DNA of 62,882 nucleotides, counting the filler, from an uncultured Methanosarcinales archaeon (GTDB lineage Archaea > Nanobdellota > Nanobdellia > Woesearchaeales > UBA12501), in assembly GCA_964397315.1 (NCBI GenBank). It is 6 parts of 6 records of this genome, joined end to end, with 100 filler letters (N's around TTAATTAATTAA, not from the genome) between each part and the next. Parts side by side here need not be neighbours in the genome. Positions count along the whole stretch, not along the records: positions 23,905 to 35,202 come from CAYNHV010000035.1; 5 more parts are not named here. One strand, given 5' to 3'. Within the stretch, counting starts at the first letter, position 1. The number at the start of each line of letters is the position of its first letter. The notes under the pieces are model-generated. The model was not told where the DNA came from. It ran no database searches and was given only the letters and a program-made list of their open reading frames with translations. The position numbers were made by a program, and so were the translations under genes. Shown here in pieces: positions 11,912-57,078 of this stretch.

Positions 11912-12011
11912 NNNNNNNNNNNNNNNNNNNNNNNNNNNNNNNNNNNNNNNNNNNNTTAATTAATTAANNNNNNNNNNNNNNNNNNNNNNNNNNNNNNNNN
12001 NNNNNNNNNNN
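11912..12011. other. Artificial contig linker
   Basis: N-run / TTAATTAATTAA / N-run. Confidence 0.99.
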
Positions 12012-22091: not shown

Positions 22092-22313
22092 TTACTTTTC
22101 TCTTACTTGCACAATCTCATAAACCTTCCTCACAACCCCTGTACTGTCCTCAGAGACACAATTCCCTGATGTATCTCACTCATTATAAACCCTGACATCA
22201 TCATCTGTTATCACTATTTTCTTTTTGTAATTTCCGGCTTCAACATCAATTGTCACCTTGTTCGTGTGCGCTTTAATGCTGAGCTTTTTGTTGTTCAGAA
22301 TAAGTTCTTTCAT
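22092..22313 (-). pseudogene. Small ORF with in-frame TGA
   Basis: ATGA-coupled to the upstream gene; 74 codons with TGA at 22176-22178. Confidence 0.4.
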
Positions 22314-22987
22314 TTGCCTGCCTCTCTCCCTTTCCTCCCCTTCACAACCTCCTCCACCCTCTTCTCTCCGATCTTCCTTATCTCCTTCAGGACTTCATCA
22401 GGCACTTCTGCCTTCAGGTCTTCTTTCAGCTCAAGGAGGAAGTCGTAGAGGTAAACAGGGAATATGTCCTCTCCGATCTCTGTCTGGTGGATGCTCTCGT
22501 TGATTATTGTCTTCCAGTTTATCTCGTGCTTCTCCATTATGTCCATCACATCCTTCCTGTCCCCGGCCCTTTCTGTTACGCACTTCAATAATATGATGTC
22601 CTCAGGCGAGAGCGTCTTGACTATAAAATTGCCGTGCTCATAGACAGCATCAGCCCTCTCAACCATTGTTTTTGAGAGCCTGAAGTAGATGATCTTCCTG
22701 CAGAAGAGGTCAATCCTGTCATCCTCCCTCTGCATCAGTATTGGCAGATCCTTCCTGTTCCTGTACAGTATTCTGCTGTCCCTCTCCCTGAAGCCAAGCT
22801 CATAAAGCGCCTTGATTACCGCATCCCTGTCCTCTTCCTTTGAGAACACGATGTCAATGTCTTTTGTTGCCTCTTTTGTGCCGTGGTAGAGCATTGCGCT
22901 GCCGCCTATGAGTATTGCCTCTGTTTTCTTCCTGAGCTTTCCGCCTATCAGGTCAAACAATCCTTCCTGCTCTTTCAGTGATGTCAT
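22310..22987 (-). CDS. Nucleotidyltransferase (DUF6036/AbiEii-like)
   Basis: IGGSAM, TKDIDI, LSPEDIILLK, RAGDRKD. Confidence 0.82.
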   Translation of the reverse strand: MTSLKEQEGLFDLIGGKLRKKTEAILIGGSAMLYHGTKEATKDIDIVFSKEEDRDAVIKALYELGFRERDSRILYRNRKDLPILMQREDDRIDLFCRKIIYFRLSKTMVERADAVYEHGNFIVKTLSPEDIILLKCVTERAGDRKDVMDIMEKHEINWKTIINESIHQTEIGEDIFPVYLYDFLLELKEDLKAEVPDEVLKEIRKIGEKRVEEVVKGRKGREAGK

Positions 22988-23616
22988 TCTTTATACCTGT
23001 GCAGGTCCGCCTTGTTCAGCGGAACATAGACTTTCCATTCCTTTTGTATATCAATAAAATCATCTGATTTCATGTTCCTGACCATGAACCTTCCTTCCCC
23101 GCCCTTTTTCAGCCTTTTCCTTATTCTCTCATCCATTCTTCTTGTTTTAACAGCTGTCCTTGCTGTGTCGTAAAGCGCCCCCACTTTCCTCCTCACATTA
23201 TATTTCTTTGCATAATGATAAAGCAATGGCCAGTCCTTCACATGGTTGAACAGGTCCAGAGAGGCCATTATTGTCCTGATGCTTCCTGACGCTGCTGCCC
23301 TTGCTATGGCCTCCTCCACGGACATATCCCTGCCTGATATCCTGTGCTTGTACGGCGCAGCTAATTTTATCCTGGAGTACTTGTTTATTGTATCATACAA
23401 TCCCCTGCCTCCCACCTTAACCTGCGGGACAGTGTATATCCTGTATAATCTCGGCTTTTTCCCCCCTCCTGATGTCTTTACAAGGCCTTTTTTCCTCAGC
23501 TCATGGACTGTTTTTATTGCTGTGGACCTGCTTACGCCCATCTTTTTCATTATAGTATTGACTGTATGCATGCCCCGCAGCTTCTTCGCGATCTCTAGAG
23601 CTTTGGATTCCTTCAT
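22984..23616 (-). CDS. wHTH-containing AbiEi-like partner
   Basis: N-terminal HTH (MGVSRSTAIKTVHELRKKGLV); ATGA-coupled to the nucleotidyltransferase. Confidence 0.7.
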   Translation of the reverse strand: MKESKALEIAKKLRGMHTVNTIMKKMGVSRSTAIKTVHELRKKGLVKTSGGGKKPRLYRIYTVPQVKVGGRGLYDTINKYSRIKLAAPYKHRISGRDMSVEEAIARAAASGSIRTIMASLDLFNHVKDWPLLYHYAKKYNVRRKVGALYDTARTAVKTRRMDERIRKRLKKGGEGRFMVRNMKSDDFIDIQKEWKVYVPLNKADLHRYKE

Positions 23617-23804: not shown

Positions 23805-23904
23805 NNNNNNNNNNNNNNNNNNNNNNNNNNNNNNNNNNNNNNNNNNNNTTAATTAATTAANNNNNNNNNNNNNNNNNNNNNNNNNNNNNNNNNNNNNNNN
23901 NNNN
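23805..23904. other. Artificial contig linker
   Basis: N-run / TTAATTAATTAA / N-run. Confidence 0.99.
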
Positions 23905-24000: not shown

Positions 24001-24274
24001 GCCGGACAGGCTAGCCGGGAGGTCAGCCCTCTCCTGCACAGCAAACGGGCTTTACGGCTGGGTGATGTCCTGGAAGAGGTGTAGGCTATGCGATCAGGTC
24101 CTGGTTTGGCCGATGATATTCTGTCCTGCAGGATCGGTGCCTTTGGGAACCGTGTCAGGCCCTGGCGGGTGCAGCACTAACCATTGGCGTTGATGCTTGC
24201 AGGGTAGCGGAATTGAGAAAAAGCCGGGGTCGCCTTTTTGCATGGCCTGCATCCACTCCGGGATGCCTGTCCGC
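24001..24274 (+). ncRNA. ffs: Archaeal SRP (7S) RNA, divergent
   Basis: Terminal helix CGGACAGGC/GCCTGTCCG; helix-8-like GTGTCAGG-CCC-TGGC-GGG-TGCAGCAC (24152-24177); TTTAAA about 25 nt upstream; TTTT downstream. Confidence 0.8.
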
Positions 24275-24347
24275 TTTTGATTCTTGTAGCAGCACAATAC
24301 AATCCACCATAACATTTAAATAATATATGTCCATCACCTCATCAATC

Positions 24348-24434
24348 ATGAAACCCAAAACCATTTCAGGAAGATTGAGCATTGTACAGCTGGTTTTGGT
24401 GGTCCTGGTTCTGGTACTTGTTCTGGTGCAGTAA
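24348..24434 (+). CDS. Putative leader peptide / micro-protein MKPKTISGRLSIVQLVLVVLVLVLVLVQ
   Basis: ATG at leaderless distance from TTTAAATA (24315-24322); Val/Leu run; stop codon in a hairpin loop. Confidence 0.55.
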   Translation: MKPKTISGRLSIVQLVLVVLVLVLVLVQ

Positions 24435-24524
24435 AGCGCCAGGGCGTTGTTATTCTCCACAAACATTCTGAGCGAATATCAGCGTCCTTGACACAGGTCC
24501 GGAATCATGAAGTGAGGTGTTAGC

Positions 24525-24974
24525 ATGAAAGAGAAAGGAGAGAGCAGCAAACTAAGCCTGGAAGAGAGGACAGAGCTCATAAAACAGCAGATATTCCCTT
24601 TTAACAGCTCGCTTTACACTCCGGTTGGGGTGGAACAGCATAATATGCGAAGCGAGAGAGACCCCACTCATGCTCTCTACATACAGGGGTGCGGGAGAGA
24701 CGGAGTTGCAGATGGAAACAGGCAGGAAGTCTCCATCTTCCTGCCCCAGTATGACATAAGCATTGAGGGAGGTGTCCTGTATTTTCTCAATAAGACTGAC
24801 CATTCAACATCCTACCATCATACCATGGATGGCATGAGGGTTTCGGGAAGCAACGGCTTCTTTTATGCAGAAGAGCTGAAGATATGCCTCATAGCTTATG
24901 CAATGCATCTTGACAATGAGAACTGCGGGGAAAACCATGACATCGGAAAATATGTTAGAGAATCCCTCAAGTAA
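24525..24974 (+). CDS. Orphan hypothetical protein
   Basis: 149 aa; SD GAGGTG. Confidence 0.75.
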   Translation: MKEKGESSKLSLEERTELIKQQIFPFNSSLYTPVGVEQHNMRSERDPTHALYIQGCGRDGVADGNRQEVSIFLPQYDISIEGGVLYFLNKTDHSTSYHHTMDGMRVSGSNGFFYAEELKICLIAYAMHLDNENCGENHDIGKYVRESLK

Positions 24975-25021
24975 GGGAGCTCAGAGAATAAAACATTTTA
25001 CGCTTTTTCTAGCACTGCTTC

Positions 25022-25053
25022 TGCGGTGAGCTGGCAGAGTGGCCAGCACCGCA
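25022..25053 (+). terminator. GC-rich intergenic hairpin
   Basis: TGCGGTG-a-GCTGGC ... GCCAGC-ACCGCA, with a T-run shortly downstream. Confidence 0.4.
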
Positions 25054-25120
25054 TCAACATCTAAACTTTTTTGCAATTTGTTTTATGAATTTAAGATTAA
25101 AACCATAATGGAGGGATACT

Positions 25121-25450
25121 ATGAGCCAATATGAAGCTGAACAAGGAGGGGAACAGGACAAAGGCAGGAAATTCGCCTACCACTGCTTGAACTGCGGGAA
25201 AGGAATAGATGAGGGGGCTGAGGTTTTTTACTCCCCTCAAAAGCCGGTGATAAATTACAATGGGGGGGCGTATGCTGTGTTTGATTCAGCTGGCTGCGTG
25301 GGTGAATTCACCATGGAGAAAGGTTTCAGGAGCTCTCTCAGCGGCCTTGAAAAGGGAACAACAGAGGATTTTGAGGCTGCTGTCAGGAAGGAGAAGGCCA
25401 ATGCAGGGAATGACATAGCCCTCTGCGTGCAGCCAGCGCTGAATGAATAA
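25121..25450 (+). CDS. Small hypothetical protein with CxxC (TRASH/YHS-like)
   Basis: CLNCGK ... FDSAGC; SD GGAGG. Confidence 0.7.
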   Translation: MSQYEAEQGGEQDKGRKFAYHCLNCGKGIDEGAEVFYSPQKPVINYNGGAYAVFDSAGCVGEFTMEKGFRSSLSGLEKGTTEDFEAAVRKEKANAGNDIALCVQPALNE

Positions 25451-25520
25451 AGACTGAGCGAACAGACACACCCCTCATATCCAAACATTTATATAACTCC
25501 TGCGCATAACAGGCGCAAGA

Positions 25521-25589
25521 ATGGCATCAGGCAAGATTAGCAGGGCATCAGTTCTTTCTATTATTCTGATTGCTATTATTATTCTTTAA
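25521..25589 (+). CDS. Putative leader peptide / micro-protein MASGKISRASVLSIILIAIIIL
   Basis: ATG at leaderless distance from TTTATATA (25488-25495); Ile run (all ATT); hairpin right after the stop. Confidence 0.55.
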   Translation: MASGKISRASVLSIILIAIIIL

Positions 25590-25647
25590 GCCCCTCATCA
25601 TTCTTGAGAGGGCCGCGCATTGTTAAAAAACATGAGGCCAGGCTAAA

Positions 25648-26037
25648 ATGGCAAAAACATCATACATGGCGTTCAGGAAGCAGCAAGGGCTTGAGAAACA
25701 CGCGGAACAGGTTCGCAATTACACTCCAGAATCCGGCTTTTACCAGGTTGGCTTCAACATGGCAATGCATGACCTGATTGAAAGGACATATTTAATATCC
25801 ACGCAGACAGGCGACTACTCCCCTGTTCTTCTGCTTGAGATGTGGGCTGAAAGACCCTATAATGCTTCTCTGGATGGAAAGCTGGACTCGGCAAAGCAGC
25901 AGCTGCTTGAGAAGGGAGAGGGGGGTGTGAGAGATATACTCATGATGTATTTGGGATGTGTGAGAAACCCCCTTGTTCCTGAAAGGTCTCACAGGATGTT
26001 TTACAAGCAGATCAGAAAAGAGCTCAGCGGAGAATAG
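25648..26037 (+). CDS. Orphan hypothetical protein
   Basis: 129 aa; GAGG upstream. Confidence 0.7.
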   Translation: MAKTSYMAFRKQQGLEKHAEQVRNYTPESGFYQVGFNMAMHDLIERTYLISTQTGDYSPVLLLEMWAERPYNASLDGKLDSAKQQLLEKGEGGVRDILMMYLGCVRNPLVPERSHRMFYKQIRKELSGE

Positions 26038-26049
26038 GATAAGGCAGGT

Positions 26050-28725
26050 TCACTCAACAACTATGGCTGGCTTTCCGGGCAGGGCCTGCTTTGCCTTTGC
26101 CTCGCTGCTGTTGTCAGCCCTCTCTGTCTCAACAGCAGCGTTGAACTGTTCTTTGATACCCTCCTTTAAGTCCTGAAGGGCTTTGAGCTCCTCATCTTGG
26201 GAGAGGAGCGTCTTTGGGAGCTTTGACTTGTCAGCCACGAGCCTGGGAACGAGCTTTGATACCTCCTTGCCGTGCTGCTTGAGTTCTGTAAGCATCACGG
26301 CTTTCATTATCTCGCCAGTGTCATGCGTCTTCTCAAGCTCCTGCTTGACCATTCTCACAAGCTCGTACTTCCACTCTGCTGCCACTAGGAGCTTTATCTT
26401 CCTGGGCTTTTCTATTCCCGCCAGCTCCAGGACCTCGTGGATATCTGATATTGTGCCGCGCACCATCTCCTCTGCCTGCTCCGCTTTCTCGTCTATCATG
26501 TTCTCGTCATAGGAGGACCAGGCCTCCAGTGATATGAAATTCTTGCCTCCCAAGGCCGCCCACATCTCTTCCGCAGCATGGGGCGCAAAGGGGGATACAA
26601 GCAGCGCTGTTGTTTTTACCGCATCATCATAAACCCTCTTGTTTATCTCCCCCTCCCTGTACTTGTAGATTGAGTTCACGAACTCCATTATCCTGCCTAT
26701 GGCCAGGCTGAACTCAAAATTTTCAATGTGCTCTGTCACAACCTTGACTGTCTTGTGCTGTTTTGCTGTTATGTTCCTGTCCCTGTTGCTGAGCTCCGCG
26801 TCTTTTCCGGCGACATCATCCTCAACAAGCTTGAGTATCCTGTTAAGGAACTTGTAGGATCCCCTTACCCCCTCATCGCTCCACTCCAGCTCTTTCTCAG
26901 GCAGGGCAGCGAAGAGAATGAAGAGCCTGGCAGTGTCAGGCCCGTATCTGGATATTATGTCTCCGGGATCCACCACATTGCCGTAGCTTTTTGACATCTT
27001 CCTGCCGTCTTTTACCACCATTCCCTGGCAGAGAAGGGCTGAGAAGGGCTCGCTTATGCTGGTGAGACCGATGTCCCTCATTGCCTTTGTCCAGAATCTC
27101 GCGTATAAGAGGTGGAGAATGGCGTGCTCTATCCCTCCGATGTACTGGTCTACAGGCATCCAGTAATCCGCTGCCTTTCCAAATGGTTTTTTGTTATTCT
27201 TGGGGTCGCAGTACCTAAAGAAATACCATGAGGAGTCCACGAAGGTGTCCATAGTGTCTGTCTCTCTTCTTGCGCTTCCCCCGCACTTGGGGCATCTTGT
27301 GTCTGTGAACTCGCTGCTTGTCTCAAGGGGATTCCCTTCTCCGCTGAATCTCACACTGTCAGGCAGCTCCACAGGAAGATCCTTCTCAGGAACAGGCACT
27401 GCGCCGCATTTTGCGCAATATATTATGGGGATTGGGGTTCCCCAGTACCTCTGCCTTGATATGAGCCAGTCCCTGAGCTTGTACTGGACAGTCCTCTTTC
27501 CAATCCCCTTGTCCCCCATGTGTTTTGATATCTCCTCAATCGCGTCCCTGTTGTTAAGGCCATTGAACTTCCCTGAGTTGATCATTGTGCCGTCCTCAAC
27601 ATAGGCCCTGGACATCTTCTCCGGCTTTAGCTCATAAGAGGGGGGGCTTATCACTGCCTTTATGGGTATGCCAAACTTTCTTGCGAATTCAAAGTCCCTC
27701 TGGTCATGGGCGGGAACAGCCATTATCATTCCTGTGCCGTACTCCATGAGGACAAAGTTGGCTATGTAAATAGGAATTTTCTCCTCTGTCAGGGGGTTTA
27801 TTGCATGCCTGCCTATGAACATGCCCTCCTTTTCCTTGTCCTCTGCGGTCCTCTCAAACCTCTCCTGTATGACCACCCTGTTCACGAACTTCTTCACTTT
27901 TTCCTCGTAATCTGTGCCCTTGACAAGCTCCATTATCTTTGGGTGCTCGGGAGCAAACACCATGAATGTAACACCATAAAGAGTGTCAGGCCTTGTGGTA
28001 AAGACCGGAAGCTCCTCTCCTGTCTCAAGCCTGAAGTTCACAAGAGTTCCCTCGCTCTTTCCTATCCAGTTTCTCTGCATTGTCTTGACCCTTTCAGGCC
28101 ACTTGTCCATGCTGTCAAGCTCGCTGAGCAGCTCTTCTGCGTAATCTGTTATCTTCAGGAACCACTGCTCAAGATCCTTTATCTCAACAGCAGAACCGCA
28201 CCTCCAGCACTTGCCCTGCTCAACCTGCTCGTTGGCCAGCACTGTCCTGCACTTAGGGCACCAGTTTATTGGCGCCTTTTTTCTGTAAGCAAGGCCATTC
28301 TCAAGGAATTTTATGAACATCCACTGGTTCCACTTGTAGTATGCAGGCAGGCAGGTGGCTATCTCCCTGCTCCAGTCATAGCTAAGGCCGAGCTGTTTTT
28401 GCTGTTCTCTCATGTTTCCTATAGAAGCTAAAGTCCATTCACTCGGCCTTACACCATTTTTTATTGCTGCATTTTCTGCAGGCAGGCCAAGAGCATCGTA
28501 ACCCATTGGATACAGGACATTGAATCCGCGCATTCTCTTGTATCTTGCGAGGGCATCTCCAATAGCATAGTTCCTGACATGGCCCATGTGCAGTCCAGAA
28601 CCGCTGGGGTAGGGAAACATTTCGATGATCATGTACTTAGTCTTCTTAGAGTCCTCTCTGGTTTCAAATACTTTCTCCTTTTTCCATCTATTCTGCCATT
28701 TTTTAGCTATTTTATTTAAATCCAT
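26050..28725 (-). CDS. leuS: Leucine--tRNA ligase (bacterial-type core, archaeal-type C-terminus)
   Basis: [53 protein letters not shown]; ends [11 protein letters not shown]. Confidence 0.97.
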
Positions 28726-35202: not shown

Positions 35203-35302
35203 NNNNNNNNNNNNNNNNNNNNNNNNNNNNNNNNNNNNNNNNNNNNTTAATTAATTAANNNNNNNNNNNNNNNNNNNNNNNNNNNNNNNNNNNNNNNNNN
35301 NN
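35203..35302. other. Artificial contig linker
   Basis: N-run / TTAATTAATTAA / N-run. Confidence 0.99.
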
Positions 35303-46124: not shown

Positions 46125-46224
46125 NNNNNNNNNNNNNNNNNNNNNNNNNNNNNNNNNNNNNNNNNNNNTTAATTAATTAANNNNNNNNNNNNNNNNNNNN
46201 NNNNNNNNNNNNNNNNNNNNNNNN
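46125..46224. other. Artificial contig linker
   Basis: N-run / TTAATTAATTAA / N-run. Confidence 0.99.
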
Positions 46225-56978: not shown

Positions 56979-57078
56979 NNNNNNNNNNNNNNNNNNNNNN
57001 NNNNNNNNNNNNNNNNNNNNNNTTAATTAATTAANNNNNNNNNNNNNNNNNNNNNNNNNNNNNNNNNNNNNNNNNNNN
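56979..57078. other. Artificial contig linker
   Basis: N-run / TTAATTAATTAA / N-run. Confidence 0.99.

Follow-up and report, generated by a model that had tools for sequence, protein, structure and literature searches.

Putative amino-acid-sensing leader ORFs with Val/Leu and Ile runs precede orphan genes in a woesearchaeal genome and have counterparts before branched-chain amino acid genes across the order

What function can be assigned to two minute open reading frames (ORFs) that stand at the leaderless distance from a TATA box, end in runs of branched-chain residues and are each followed by an orphan gene? Both are found in a window of 62,882 nucleotides (nt), the whole stretch of DNA analysed here, which was assembled from contigs of an uncultured archaeon of the Woesearchaeales (assembly GCA_964397315.1; genome G000, 1.47 Mb in 61 contigs, 93% complete), the leaders being located on contig C35. 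An earlier note on this DNA had proposed that the two ORFs, here called L1 (Val/Leu run) and L2 (Ile run), sense the supply of Val/Leu and Ile by ribosome pausing, a core idea which comparative genomics, the only kind of evidence available, strongly supports. We regard L1 and L2 as probable amino-acid-sensing leader ORFs, at a probability of roughly 0.8, and as apparent members of an order-wide system of Woesearchaeota in which such leaders precede cimA, leuA-headed branched-chain amino acid (BCAA) operons and leuA paralogues, the last mostly stand-alone in the loci inspected. The coordinates, peptides, TATA spacings and hairpins reported in the earlier note were all found to be correct on re-reading of the sequence, and the two leaders read as follows.

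24315..24322, plus strand: TATA box of L1, TTTAAATA, starting 33 nt ahead of the ATG
24348..24434, plus strand: leader ORF L1, MKPKTISGRLSIVQLVLVVLVLVLVLVQ, with the Val/Leu run; ATG at 24348, 28 codons, TAA at 24432-24434
25488..25495, plus strand: TATA box of L2, TTTATATA, 33 nt before the ATG
25521..25589, plus strand: leader ORF L2, MASGKISRASVLSIILIAIIIL, with the Ile run; ATG at 25521, 22 codons, TAA at 25587-25589

An in-frame ATG at 24327 extends the L1 ORF upstream, but is unlikely to be present on the transcript, as it lies only 5 nt past the TATA box.

The reading is carried by a survey of the order, in which LeuA/CimA-family (HMGL-like) genes were found in 107 of 401 sampled genomes and matches to the citramalate synthase model TIGR00977 above its curated equivalog cut-off of 450 bits in 39 of the 401. 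A sample of the phylum gave TIGR00977 matches at E <= 1e-60 in 16 of 401 genomes, every one of them from this same order. Every listed TIGR00977 match starting at the N-terminus was included, with four unpublished genomes left out, and the 600 nt upstream of 133 genes were searched, 129 of which were usable (at least 250 nt upstream). As a leader we took the ATG ORF of 8-70 amino acids (aa), ending no more than 250 nt from the gene, with the highest count of a single amino acid per 10-residue window, at a threshold of 4 in 10, and the enzymes were divided into classes by their TIGR00977 hidden Markov model (HMM) bit scores.

Class A (at least 400 bits), 39 genes: Ile leader before 31 (17 GTDB families), Leu leader before 0, no leader before 8
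Class B (205-250 bits), 37 genes: Ile leader before 0, Leu or Leu/Val leader before 30 (17 families), no leader before 7
Class C (below 205 bits), 52 genes: Ile leader before 15, Leu leader before 20 (often pure poly-Leu), no leader before 17
Remaining gene, that of G001 at 369 bits: Ile leader

Leaders are present in 40 of the 46 families with usable genes, and both an Ile and a Leu leader were found in 30 genomes. Fisher's exact test on class A versus class B gives p = 4e-18, to be read with the reservation that related genomes are not independent, so that the per-family counts are the safer figures. At a threshold of 5 in 10, control windows 300-600 nt upstream gave 9 Leu and 0 Ile runs among the 129 genes and mononucleotide shuffles about 5 of 129; the reverse complements gave 12 Ile and 8 Leu, but cannot be counted as an independent control because ATT repeats contain ATA when reverse-complemented. 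Of eight lysW-preceded paralogues, which belong to the lysine pathway, none showed a leader before the gene or before lysW.

The content of the operons, assessed by Pfam in 20 loci of 6 kb, follows the type of run. All six Leu/Val leaders (class B) head BCAA operons, five of them with a thiamine pyrophosphate (TPP) enzyme, the ilvB-like large subunit of acetohydroxyacid synthase (AHAS), directly after leuA; two of those five came out as complete leuA-ilvB-ilvN-leuC-leuD operons, the remaining three as leuA-ilvB-ilvN, leuA-ilvB and leuA-ilvB-leuC-leuD, and the sixth locus reads leuA-ilvE-leuC-leuD-leuB. Behind the Ile leaders of class A there is, in five of five loci, a lone cimA-type gene with HMGL, HCS_D2 and LeuA_dimer domains, with housekeeping genes downstream of it. 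Poly-Leu leaders (five loci) precede three stand-alone leuA-like genes with LeuA_dimer, one HMGL-only gene and one gene not recovered by the ORF filter, and the class C Ile leaders precede genes with HMGL and LeuA_dimer in four of four loci, one of them in cimA-TBP-MCM synteny. In bacteria, Leu alone controls leuA, Val and Leu together control it where acetolactate synthase is co-transcribed, and Ile controls the committed step to isoleucine; the pairing of leader and operon in the order appears to mirror this logic. Since Leu/Val leaders head leuA-ilvB operons across the order, L1 is assigned by its run to the leuA/ilvB-operon type, and L2, on the same sequence grounds, to the cimA type. The type of the leader might then serve as a ready predictor for the annotation of cimA versus leuA paralogues.

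As a side observation on the cimA-type loci, TBP follows the cimA-type gene in six of six (L178-L182 and L194) and MCM in four of six (class A alone: TBP five of five, MCM three), across several GTDB families; the MCM of G025 (L179, 1134 aa) carries an intein with a LAGLIDADG domain.

The 97 leaders with at least 4 in 10 Ile or Leu are built alike. A TATA-like motif was found no more than 50 nt upstream of 74 of them, the first base of the TATA-like 7-mer peaking 29-33 nt before the leader ATG (72 of 98 motif matches), and a Shine-Dalgarno (SD)-like 4-mer precedes 10 of the 97 leader ATGs versus 64 of the 97 enzyme-gene ATGs; spacers with a TATA-like motif 27-35 nt before the gene ATG number 10 of 97. 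Spacing of the TATA box, distribution of SD motifs and promoterless spacers together fit a single transcript with a leaderless leader and, as its second cistron, an SD-led gene. Leaders of no more than 30 aa number 80, with a median of 22 aa and a minimum of 15 aa, and in 91 of the 97 the last codon of the run is 0 or 1 codon away from the stop. Leucine is written with all six of its codons and isoleucine with all three (ATT 179, ATA 107 and ATC 79 times). At the stop, 75 of 97 leaders (77%) have a hairpin of -8 kcal/mol or lower, versus 21% of 480 control positions, its core starting between -1 and +3 of the first post-stop base in 55 of 97. Besides this hairpin, pairing between the run and the 20 nt at the 5' end, AUG included, exceeds what shuffled 5' segments attain (mean z -1.28, Wilcoxon p = 2e-10), the z score of the duplex between 5' end and run being below 0 in 66 of 80 and below -1.64 in 32 of 80. 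The stem so formed typically reads GAUUCC/GGAAUC in class A; it is AUCAGGC/GCCUGAU in L2 and CCAAAACC/GGUUUUGG in L1, unlike sequences of one design.

These dimensions bear on the alternative that the micro-ORFs are small hydrophobic membrane peptides or type I toxins, in which Ile, Leu and Val would simply build a membrane helix. A basic N-terminus followed by a hydrophobic tail, with 13 aa uninterrupted in L1 and 9 aa in L2, is what such a peptide would offer; however, a membrane-spanning segment needs about 18-20 aa, whereas the longest uninterrupted stretch in the 97 leaders is 8 aa in the median and never exceeds 14 aa, some leaders measure just 15 aa altogether, and the run abuts the stop codon and the hairpin. 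Moreover, the amino acid of the run tracks the downstream enzyme in 61 of 61 class A and B cases, and no antisense or antitoxin feature was seen. What looks like a genuine small membrane protein of this genome, a 41-aa leaderless ORF outside the window (G000:C14:24137-24262, MPGTLKKEGGVEARIVLIIIAIILVMSFLIYTVLKVRDMLG), has a central hydrophobic core and charged ends, in contrast to L1 and L2. A membrane or toxin function is considered very improbable.

At the locus itself, the leaders are enclosed by two conserved genes.

24003..24273, plus strand: archaeal signal recognition particle (SRP) RNA, Rfam RF01857, 114.1 bits versus a gathering score of 96.5; left anchor of the locus
26050-28725, minus strand: leucyl-tRNA synthetase (LeuRS) gene, convergent; right anchor of the locus

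The interval between SRP RNA and LeuRS is syntenic in the genus and the family, and both leaders are found within it in five relatives of three genera. Orthologues of L1 with a Val/Leu run follow the SRP RNA in G007, G001, G003, G004 and G013, and orthologues of L2 with an Ile run are present in the same five genomes and in G028, a member of another family. That the host belongs to a DPANN lineage, as had been guessed from the DNA, holds in view of the archaeal SRP RNA and of the family-level relative G007, deposited as a Candidatus Woesearchaeota archaeon. The orthologous leaders change in length by whole codons, stop with TAA, TGA or TAG, and exchange synonymous codons within the run (ATT/ATC/ATA; CTG/CTA/CTT/CTC/TTG; GTA/GTC/GTT/GTG), which indicates selection on the reading frame and on the meaning of the codons. 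The SG(R/K)(L/I)S motif common to L1 and L2, to which attention had been drawn, is not kept in the orthologues.

Directly behind the L2 orthologues of G001, G003, G004 and G028 there are LeuA/CimA-family genes. Those of the first three have citramalate synthase (TIGR00977) as best NCBIfam match, with 366 bits in G001 and 340 bits in G003, under the cut-off of 450, and 152 bits in G004, where only a 187-aa fragment is available; the gene of G028 is assigned to the family by its N-terminus and its TIGR00977 match. In G000 and G007, the orphan gene ORF3 follows L2 instead. The genes after L1 differ among the relatives and none of them is a LeuA/CimA-family member. In G013, a third micro-ORF with a Leu run, ending LLISLLSPLLLLL, precedes a 2-isopropylmalate synthase gene (530.9 bits versus a cut-off of 532). 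A covariance model of L2 (R1), which detects the element of G028 too, recovered it in 6 of 17 family genomes and in 2 of 151 genomes of the order sample, so poor a reach, as sequence-level models do not travel, that the gene-anchored survey was used instead.

Which structures does a ribosome on these leaders encounter? The predicted helices are the following.

24348..24406, plus strand: L1 helix P1; 24348-24361 (5' end including the AUG) pairs with 24393-24406 (first half of the run)
24407..24506, plus strand: L1 helix P2; 24407-24419 (second half of the run) pairs with 24495-24506 (conserved block of the spacer)
24441..24488, plus strand: L1 helix P3, the post-stop hairpin; 24441-24455 pairs with 24474-24488
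25521..25576, plus strand: L2 5' stem; AUGGCAUCAGG (25521-25531) pairs with the run region (25565-25576)
25590..25613, plus strand: L2 hairpin, beginning at the first base past the stop and present in the minimum free energy (MFE) fold

P1 consists of 12 pairs with 93% of cells paired (RNAalifold, 5 genomes), P2, which encloses the stop codon and P3, of 12 pairs with 90% of cells paired and 4 pairs changed on both sides, and P3 of 15 pairs, 3 of them compensatory. Together they comprise 39 pairs, 7 of them changed on both sides, and 92.3% of cells are paired; sliding the partners by 1-3 columns leaves 35-54% of cells paired and 0-2 double-changed pairs, and the observed measures are reached by 0-3 of 500 shuffles, figures which pertain to five related sequences only and to a structure derived from the same alignment. 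The L1 pairing CCAAAACC/GGTTTTGG described earlier forms and is conserved in the relatives. Of the stem spanning the L1 stop codon (24421-24430/24438-24447), proposed alongside, it can be said that it appears in the MFE fold of a shorter stretch, but overlaps and partly competes with P3.

In L2, the 5' stem AUCAGGC/GCCUGAU has 9 pairs, 3 of them compensatory (ACUAGAC/GUCUGGU in G001). The hairpin that had been placed right after the stop codon is indeed part of the MFE fold and is kept as a GCCC...GGGC stem in 7 genomes. The switch that had been suggested for it, by which its 5' arm CCTCAT would alternatively pair with ATGAGG in the SD region, is unique to this genome and not conserved, the arm reading GCCCGCAT, GCCCGCAA, GCCCAAAA or GGCCTGG in the relatives. 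The motif TTAAAAAA in the L2 spacer was considered as a promoter and rejected: at the 33-nt spacing the start would fall about 8 nt past the ATG of ORF3, and the motif also misfits the TATA pattern used.

As the run is base-paired in conserved helices and several synonymous sites are invariant in close relatives, the element could be regarded as an untranslated structured RNA or a DNA element, the ORF arising as a by-product of constraints on helices or on a protein-binding site. Selection of that kind would hardly account for the reading frame, which is kept together with an ATG at the leaderless distance from the TATA box, nor for a stop kept after the run, for indels of whole codons and for the use of all three Ile and six Leu codons across the order. 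Furthermore, unrelated nucleotide sequences in 40 families encode the same kind of run, and there is no match to an Rfam family: in the window, only the SRP RNA passes, the best E-value between 24280 and 26050 being 0.53, far below the gathering scores. We attach very little probability to an untranslated element and take L1 and L2 as translated leaders in what follows.

What might the leaders control in this genome, where no cognate enzyme is detectable? Two genes stand behind them.

24525..24974, plus strand: ORF1, 149 aa, SD-led orphan after L1
25648..26037, plus strand: ORF3, 129 aa, orphan after L2, predicted to be all-helical

That both are SD-led, as the earlier note had stated, is borne out by the SD-like GAGGTG before the ATG at 24525 and by GAGG before the ATG at 25648. 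ORF1 is without a Pfam or NCBIfam family and matches only itself among 5.8 billion proteins; with the 286-aa proteins encoded downstream of L1 in G001 and G003 it shares 25-29% identity. It aligns with the N-terminal half only of these two proteins, with a common LNKxDHxTSYH block, and may be a truncated gene. ORF3, likewise without a Pfam or NCBIfam family, has as its only relatives the G007 protein (56%) and one 141-aa protein in 1.84 billion representatives. Its best AlphaFold model reaches a pLDDT of 87.8, the other four 55-68, and the model has no fold match in the PDB at E <= 0.001.

The guess that the host is auxotrophic agrees with the gene content, as no BCAA biosynthesis genes are detectable in this 93% complete genome. 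Homologues of the LeuA/CimA family and of IlvD were not found in G000, and tblastn with LeuA, CimA, IlvB, IlvN, LeuB, LeuC, LeuD and IlvE of the order gave nothing at E <= 1e-3; LeuA/CimA-family genes were not found in G007 (87% complete) either. Both leaders are intact and conserved in G000 and G007. With the pathway genes gone and the leaders intact, the leaders have outlived the pathway.

It might be argued that they have done so as relics only, former sensors of leuA/cimA operons that decay and regulate nothing. The absence from G000 of homologues of the LeuA/CimA family, IlvB, IlvN, LeuB/C/D, IlvE and IlvD would agree with this, as would ORF1 as a truncated form of a 286-aa protein and the exchange of the L1-downstream genes between relatives. 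However, ORFs, TATA boxes and helices are intact not only in G000 but also in G007, and L1 precedes a gene other than LeuA/CimA in six of six family genomes, yet its ORF and its three helices are kept with compensatory changes. Moreover, G013 retains L1 beside the separate Leu leader of its leuA, and the DNA identity of the leaders to the relatives (57-79%) is similar to that of the LeuRS gene (67-75%). Decay is thus rated as improbable, and the likeliest reading of the sequences is that L1 and L2 now tie ORF1 and ORF3 to the supply of Val/Leu and Ile, respectively. We lean slightly towards the wider proposition that the sensors have been kept and rewired to orphan genes, and that Archaea possess ribosome-read leaders, each sensing a single amino acid, which are spread over at least 40 GTDB families of one order.

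How could such a leader act? The speed of the ribosome through the C-terminal run would report the charging of tRNA, tRNA-Val and tRNA-Leu in the case of L1 and tRNA-Ile in the case of L2. A ribosome with one of the last run codons in its A site covers about 12-15 nt downstream. Pausing on hungry last codons, it would cover the 5' arm of the stop-adjacent hairpin and unwind it, in L1 opening P1 and P2 as well, and the opened hairpin would raise expression of the downstream gene, which would be on in starvation; a ribosome running through and leaving would allow the closed structure to form. The 5' stem may limit loading to one co-transcriptional ribosome. Every helix of L1 and L2 must be opened by a translating ribosome, and the way in which run, stop and hairpin adjoin one another points to a direct steric effect, with the footprint coinciding with the hairpin's 5' arm. 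As the level of output, translation or accessibility of the mRNA is tentatively favoured, at somewhat less than even odds; termination at an oligo-U tract is possible but rather unlikely, and the remainder falls to other routes such as RNA stability.

Several observations weigh against the sensor reading or at least against its details, the first of them concerning this output step. Modelled ribosome positions shift the unpaired probability of the ribosome-binding site (RBS) little (0.45 to 0.52 in class A), a subset gaining 0.25 or more; about half of the class A hairpins end no more than 22 nt from the gene ATG, inside the initiation footprint. The duplex tests labelled A:C, A:D, B:D, D:tail and C:tail were null, with no consistent alternative pairing, as was the test of extended 3' arm versus downstream pairing (mean z 0.09), and the B:C pairing is weak, with a mean z of -0.4 and p = 0.017 before correction for 8 tests. 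No terminator and antiterminator of the bacterial type that would exclude each other were found, L1 offering only the family-specific P1-P3. Within 40 nt past the hairpin, a run of at least four T follows ten of 21 class B leaders, two of 16 in class C and none of 12 in class A. Given the weak shift at the RBS, the lack of alternative pairing and the patchy T-runs, the sign and the level of regulation are inferences.

A second group of such observations concerns the statistical basis. The earlier note had called for an enrichment of the layout over shuffled controls; none is seen in this genome, where a TATA box with an ATG at 29-33 nt and an ORF of 10-45 aa occurs 113 times versus 94-125 times in 10 shuffles, and the fold energies of L1 and L2 equal those of dinucleotide shuffles (z -0.32 and -0.39). 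Runs of at least 5 in 10 are found in 16 of the 113 layouts versus 1-7 in the shuffles, and a C-terminal Ile/Leu/Val run among the 113 occurs in L1 and L2 only. Enrichment within the genome is an uninformative test, and the significance of the leaders comes from other genomes. There, 8 of the 39 genes in class A and 7 of the 37 in class B show no leader, the classes are defined by HMM bit scores, the leaders are called from the first ATG, and the genomes of one order are not independent of each other. In the window, the downstream genes are orphans without a known link to BCAA.

Finally, Ile, Leu and Val are all hydrophobic, and a leader for a polar amino acid has not been demonstrated. A His-run pattern was found in 0 of 191 genomes by an insensitive search; the same pattern written for Ile was found in 17 of 191, none of them a surveyed leader, with 9 matches in the reversed control, and as the Ile version missed the known leaders and the reversed control matched, the null result for His is uninformative. 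A Lys-run micro-ORF before lysW was present in 0 of 8 cases. For tryptophan the evidence is ambiguous, as a Trp-codon motif before trpE-like genes is open to three readings: a leader ORF for Trp, an operator, or a motif of the RNA.

This motif, AGTG[AG]TT[GA]TC..TGG, is carried by 10 of 27 trpE-like loci (L200, L204-L207, L209, L211, L217, L221 and L225), 143-215 nt before the start of the Chorismate_bind gene (74 nt in one), and has no match in 276 kb of other loci. Read as a micro-ORF, it gives M-x-S-D-C-x-W-x-stop with a single Trp codon; its AGT GAT TGT, however, does not vary at synonymous sites, some loci have another GTGATT-like copy behind it, and several have a canonical promoter between motif and gene. 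In one of 10 loci scanned with ARAGORN, a tRNA-Trp(cca) is located between the motif and the trpE-like gene on the strand of the gene (L221:2950-3025, G188). The Chorismate_bind (trpE/pabB-like) gene of the present genome (G000:C3:98548-99312, 554-aa open frame) is without the upstream motif.

From the SRP RNA to LeuRS, the order of elements is thus TATA-L1-ORF1, a hairpin followed by T6, ORF2, and TATA-L2-ORF3, the two elements in the middle being the following.

25022..25053, plus strand: strong hairpin followed by T6 (T tract CTTTTTTG), MFE -23.2 kcal/mol, z -2.62
25121..25450, plus strand: ORF2, 109 aa, CxxC-containing orphan between the leader units; an ORF call without Pfam or NCBIfam family

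The hairpin is 76-88% identical in 4 relatives at the same relative position, always between the L1 unit and the next gene (ORF2-like; leuA-like in G003), and probably marks the end of the L1-ORF1 unit as a terminator or processing site. The slot of ORF2 is taken by Cys-rich proteins of 183-200 aa in G007, G001 and G004 and by a leuA-like gene in G003; ORF2 appears to be a short form of the former, a homology judged by eye. Elsewhere in the window, an overlapping pair on the minus strand (22310-23616) consists of a DUF6036/DUF2204 nucleotidyltransferase (22310-22987) and a winged-helix HTH (helix-turn-helix) protein (22984-23616), laid out like a toxin-antitoxin or regulator pair. The window consists of joined contigs, with N runs around TTAATTAATTAA at 11912-12011, 23805-23904, 35203-35302, 46125-46224 and 56979-57078, so that neighbours across these joints are without physical linkage. 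Among sequencing runs, the locus is listed for three DNA runs, all from one microbial-mat study, and for no RNA run.

If the sensor reading is true, a host-dependent archaeon would read its supply of Ile and of Leu/Val by ribosome pausing and switch lineage-specific genes in response. Sensors that have outlasted their pathway point to ORF1 and ORF3 as genes probably tied to the amino-acid supply from the host or the community, and hence as candidates for functions in host interaction or scavenging. A conserved leader system in archaea would mean that a second domain of life exploits coupled transcription and translation to sense metabolites, by means of another RNA layout. It would also provide roughly a hundred natural variants from which the effect of a paused archaeal ribosome on downstream expression could be worked out.

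To our knowledge, leader-peptide attenuation, a textbook mechanism of bacteria, has no described archaeal counterpart; in the literature covered, which leaves out most subscription journals, so that an earlier description is possible, bacterial systems only and no archaeal precedent were found. The enterobacterial attenuators of ilvBN, ilvGMEDA and leu possess the leader peptides IvbL, IlvL and LeuL. With them, the woesearchaeal leaders have in common a short ORF with a run of codons for the regulatory amino acid before the cognate operon (in the window itself, before orphan genes), Val and Leu runs before an acetolactate synthase operon, pure Leu before leuA, and helices that overlap the run. 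In contrast to the enterobacterial systems, they are archaeal and apparently leaderless with a TATA promoter, have the run at the end of the ORF and the hairpin from the stop onwards, and lack a detectable terminator/antiterminator pair, a consistent U-tract and an Rfam leader match; Ile control would be exerted on cimA, the pyruvate route, not on ilvA or ilvG. A second comparison is offered by translational attenuation of cat and erm genes, where the pause depends on the drug and the nascent peptide and the hairpin contains the SD. Here as there, a paused ribosome adjoining a hairpin would open it, the run ending 0-1 codon from the stop and the hairpin lying at -1 to +3; unlike in cat/erm, the pause is proposed to come from amino-acid starvation, and the SD is inside the hairpin only in some cases with a short spacer.

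Leaderless leaders are described for two bacterial systems. In Corynebacterium glutamicum, the leader of the ilvBNC attenuator with its BCAA run is translated without a ribosome-binding site (PMC11857589); the proposed mechanism is reported to be of a three-hairpin terminator type, an alternative set of which no equivalent was found here. For the polycysteine leaderless small ORFs (sORFs) of mycobacteria, the 'Cys ribulon', it is proposed that stalled ribosomes block an RNA structure which demonstrably sequesters the downstream RBS, several loci being coordinated via one amino acid (Canestrari et al., 10.1101/834739). The woesearchaeal leaders resemble these sORFs as putatively leaderless first cistrons with a run of a single amino acid and downstream genes of the same metabolism; they differ in that the mycobacterial system is bacterial and reads Cys, whereas Ile, Leu and Val would be read here, with an additional stem between 5' end and run and with a modelled RBS accessibility that shifts little. 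An output on translation or accessibility, as in the mycobacterial polycysteine sORFs, is therefore favoured, with termination a close second. By their sequences, L1, L2 and their counterparts would be leader-peptide sensors of the familiar kind, set apart by their layout and found in a domain new to such devices, and would be the first of their kind in Archaea.

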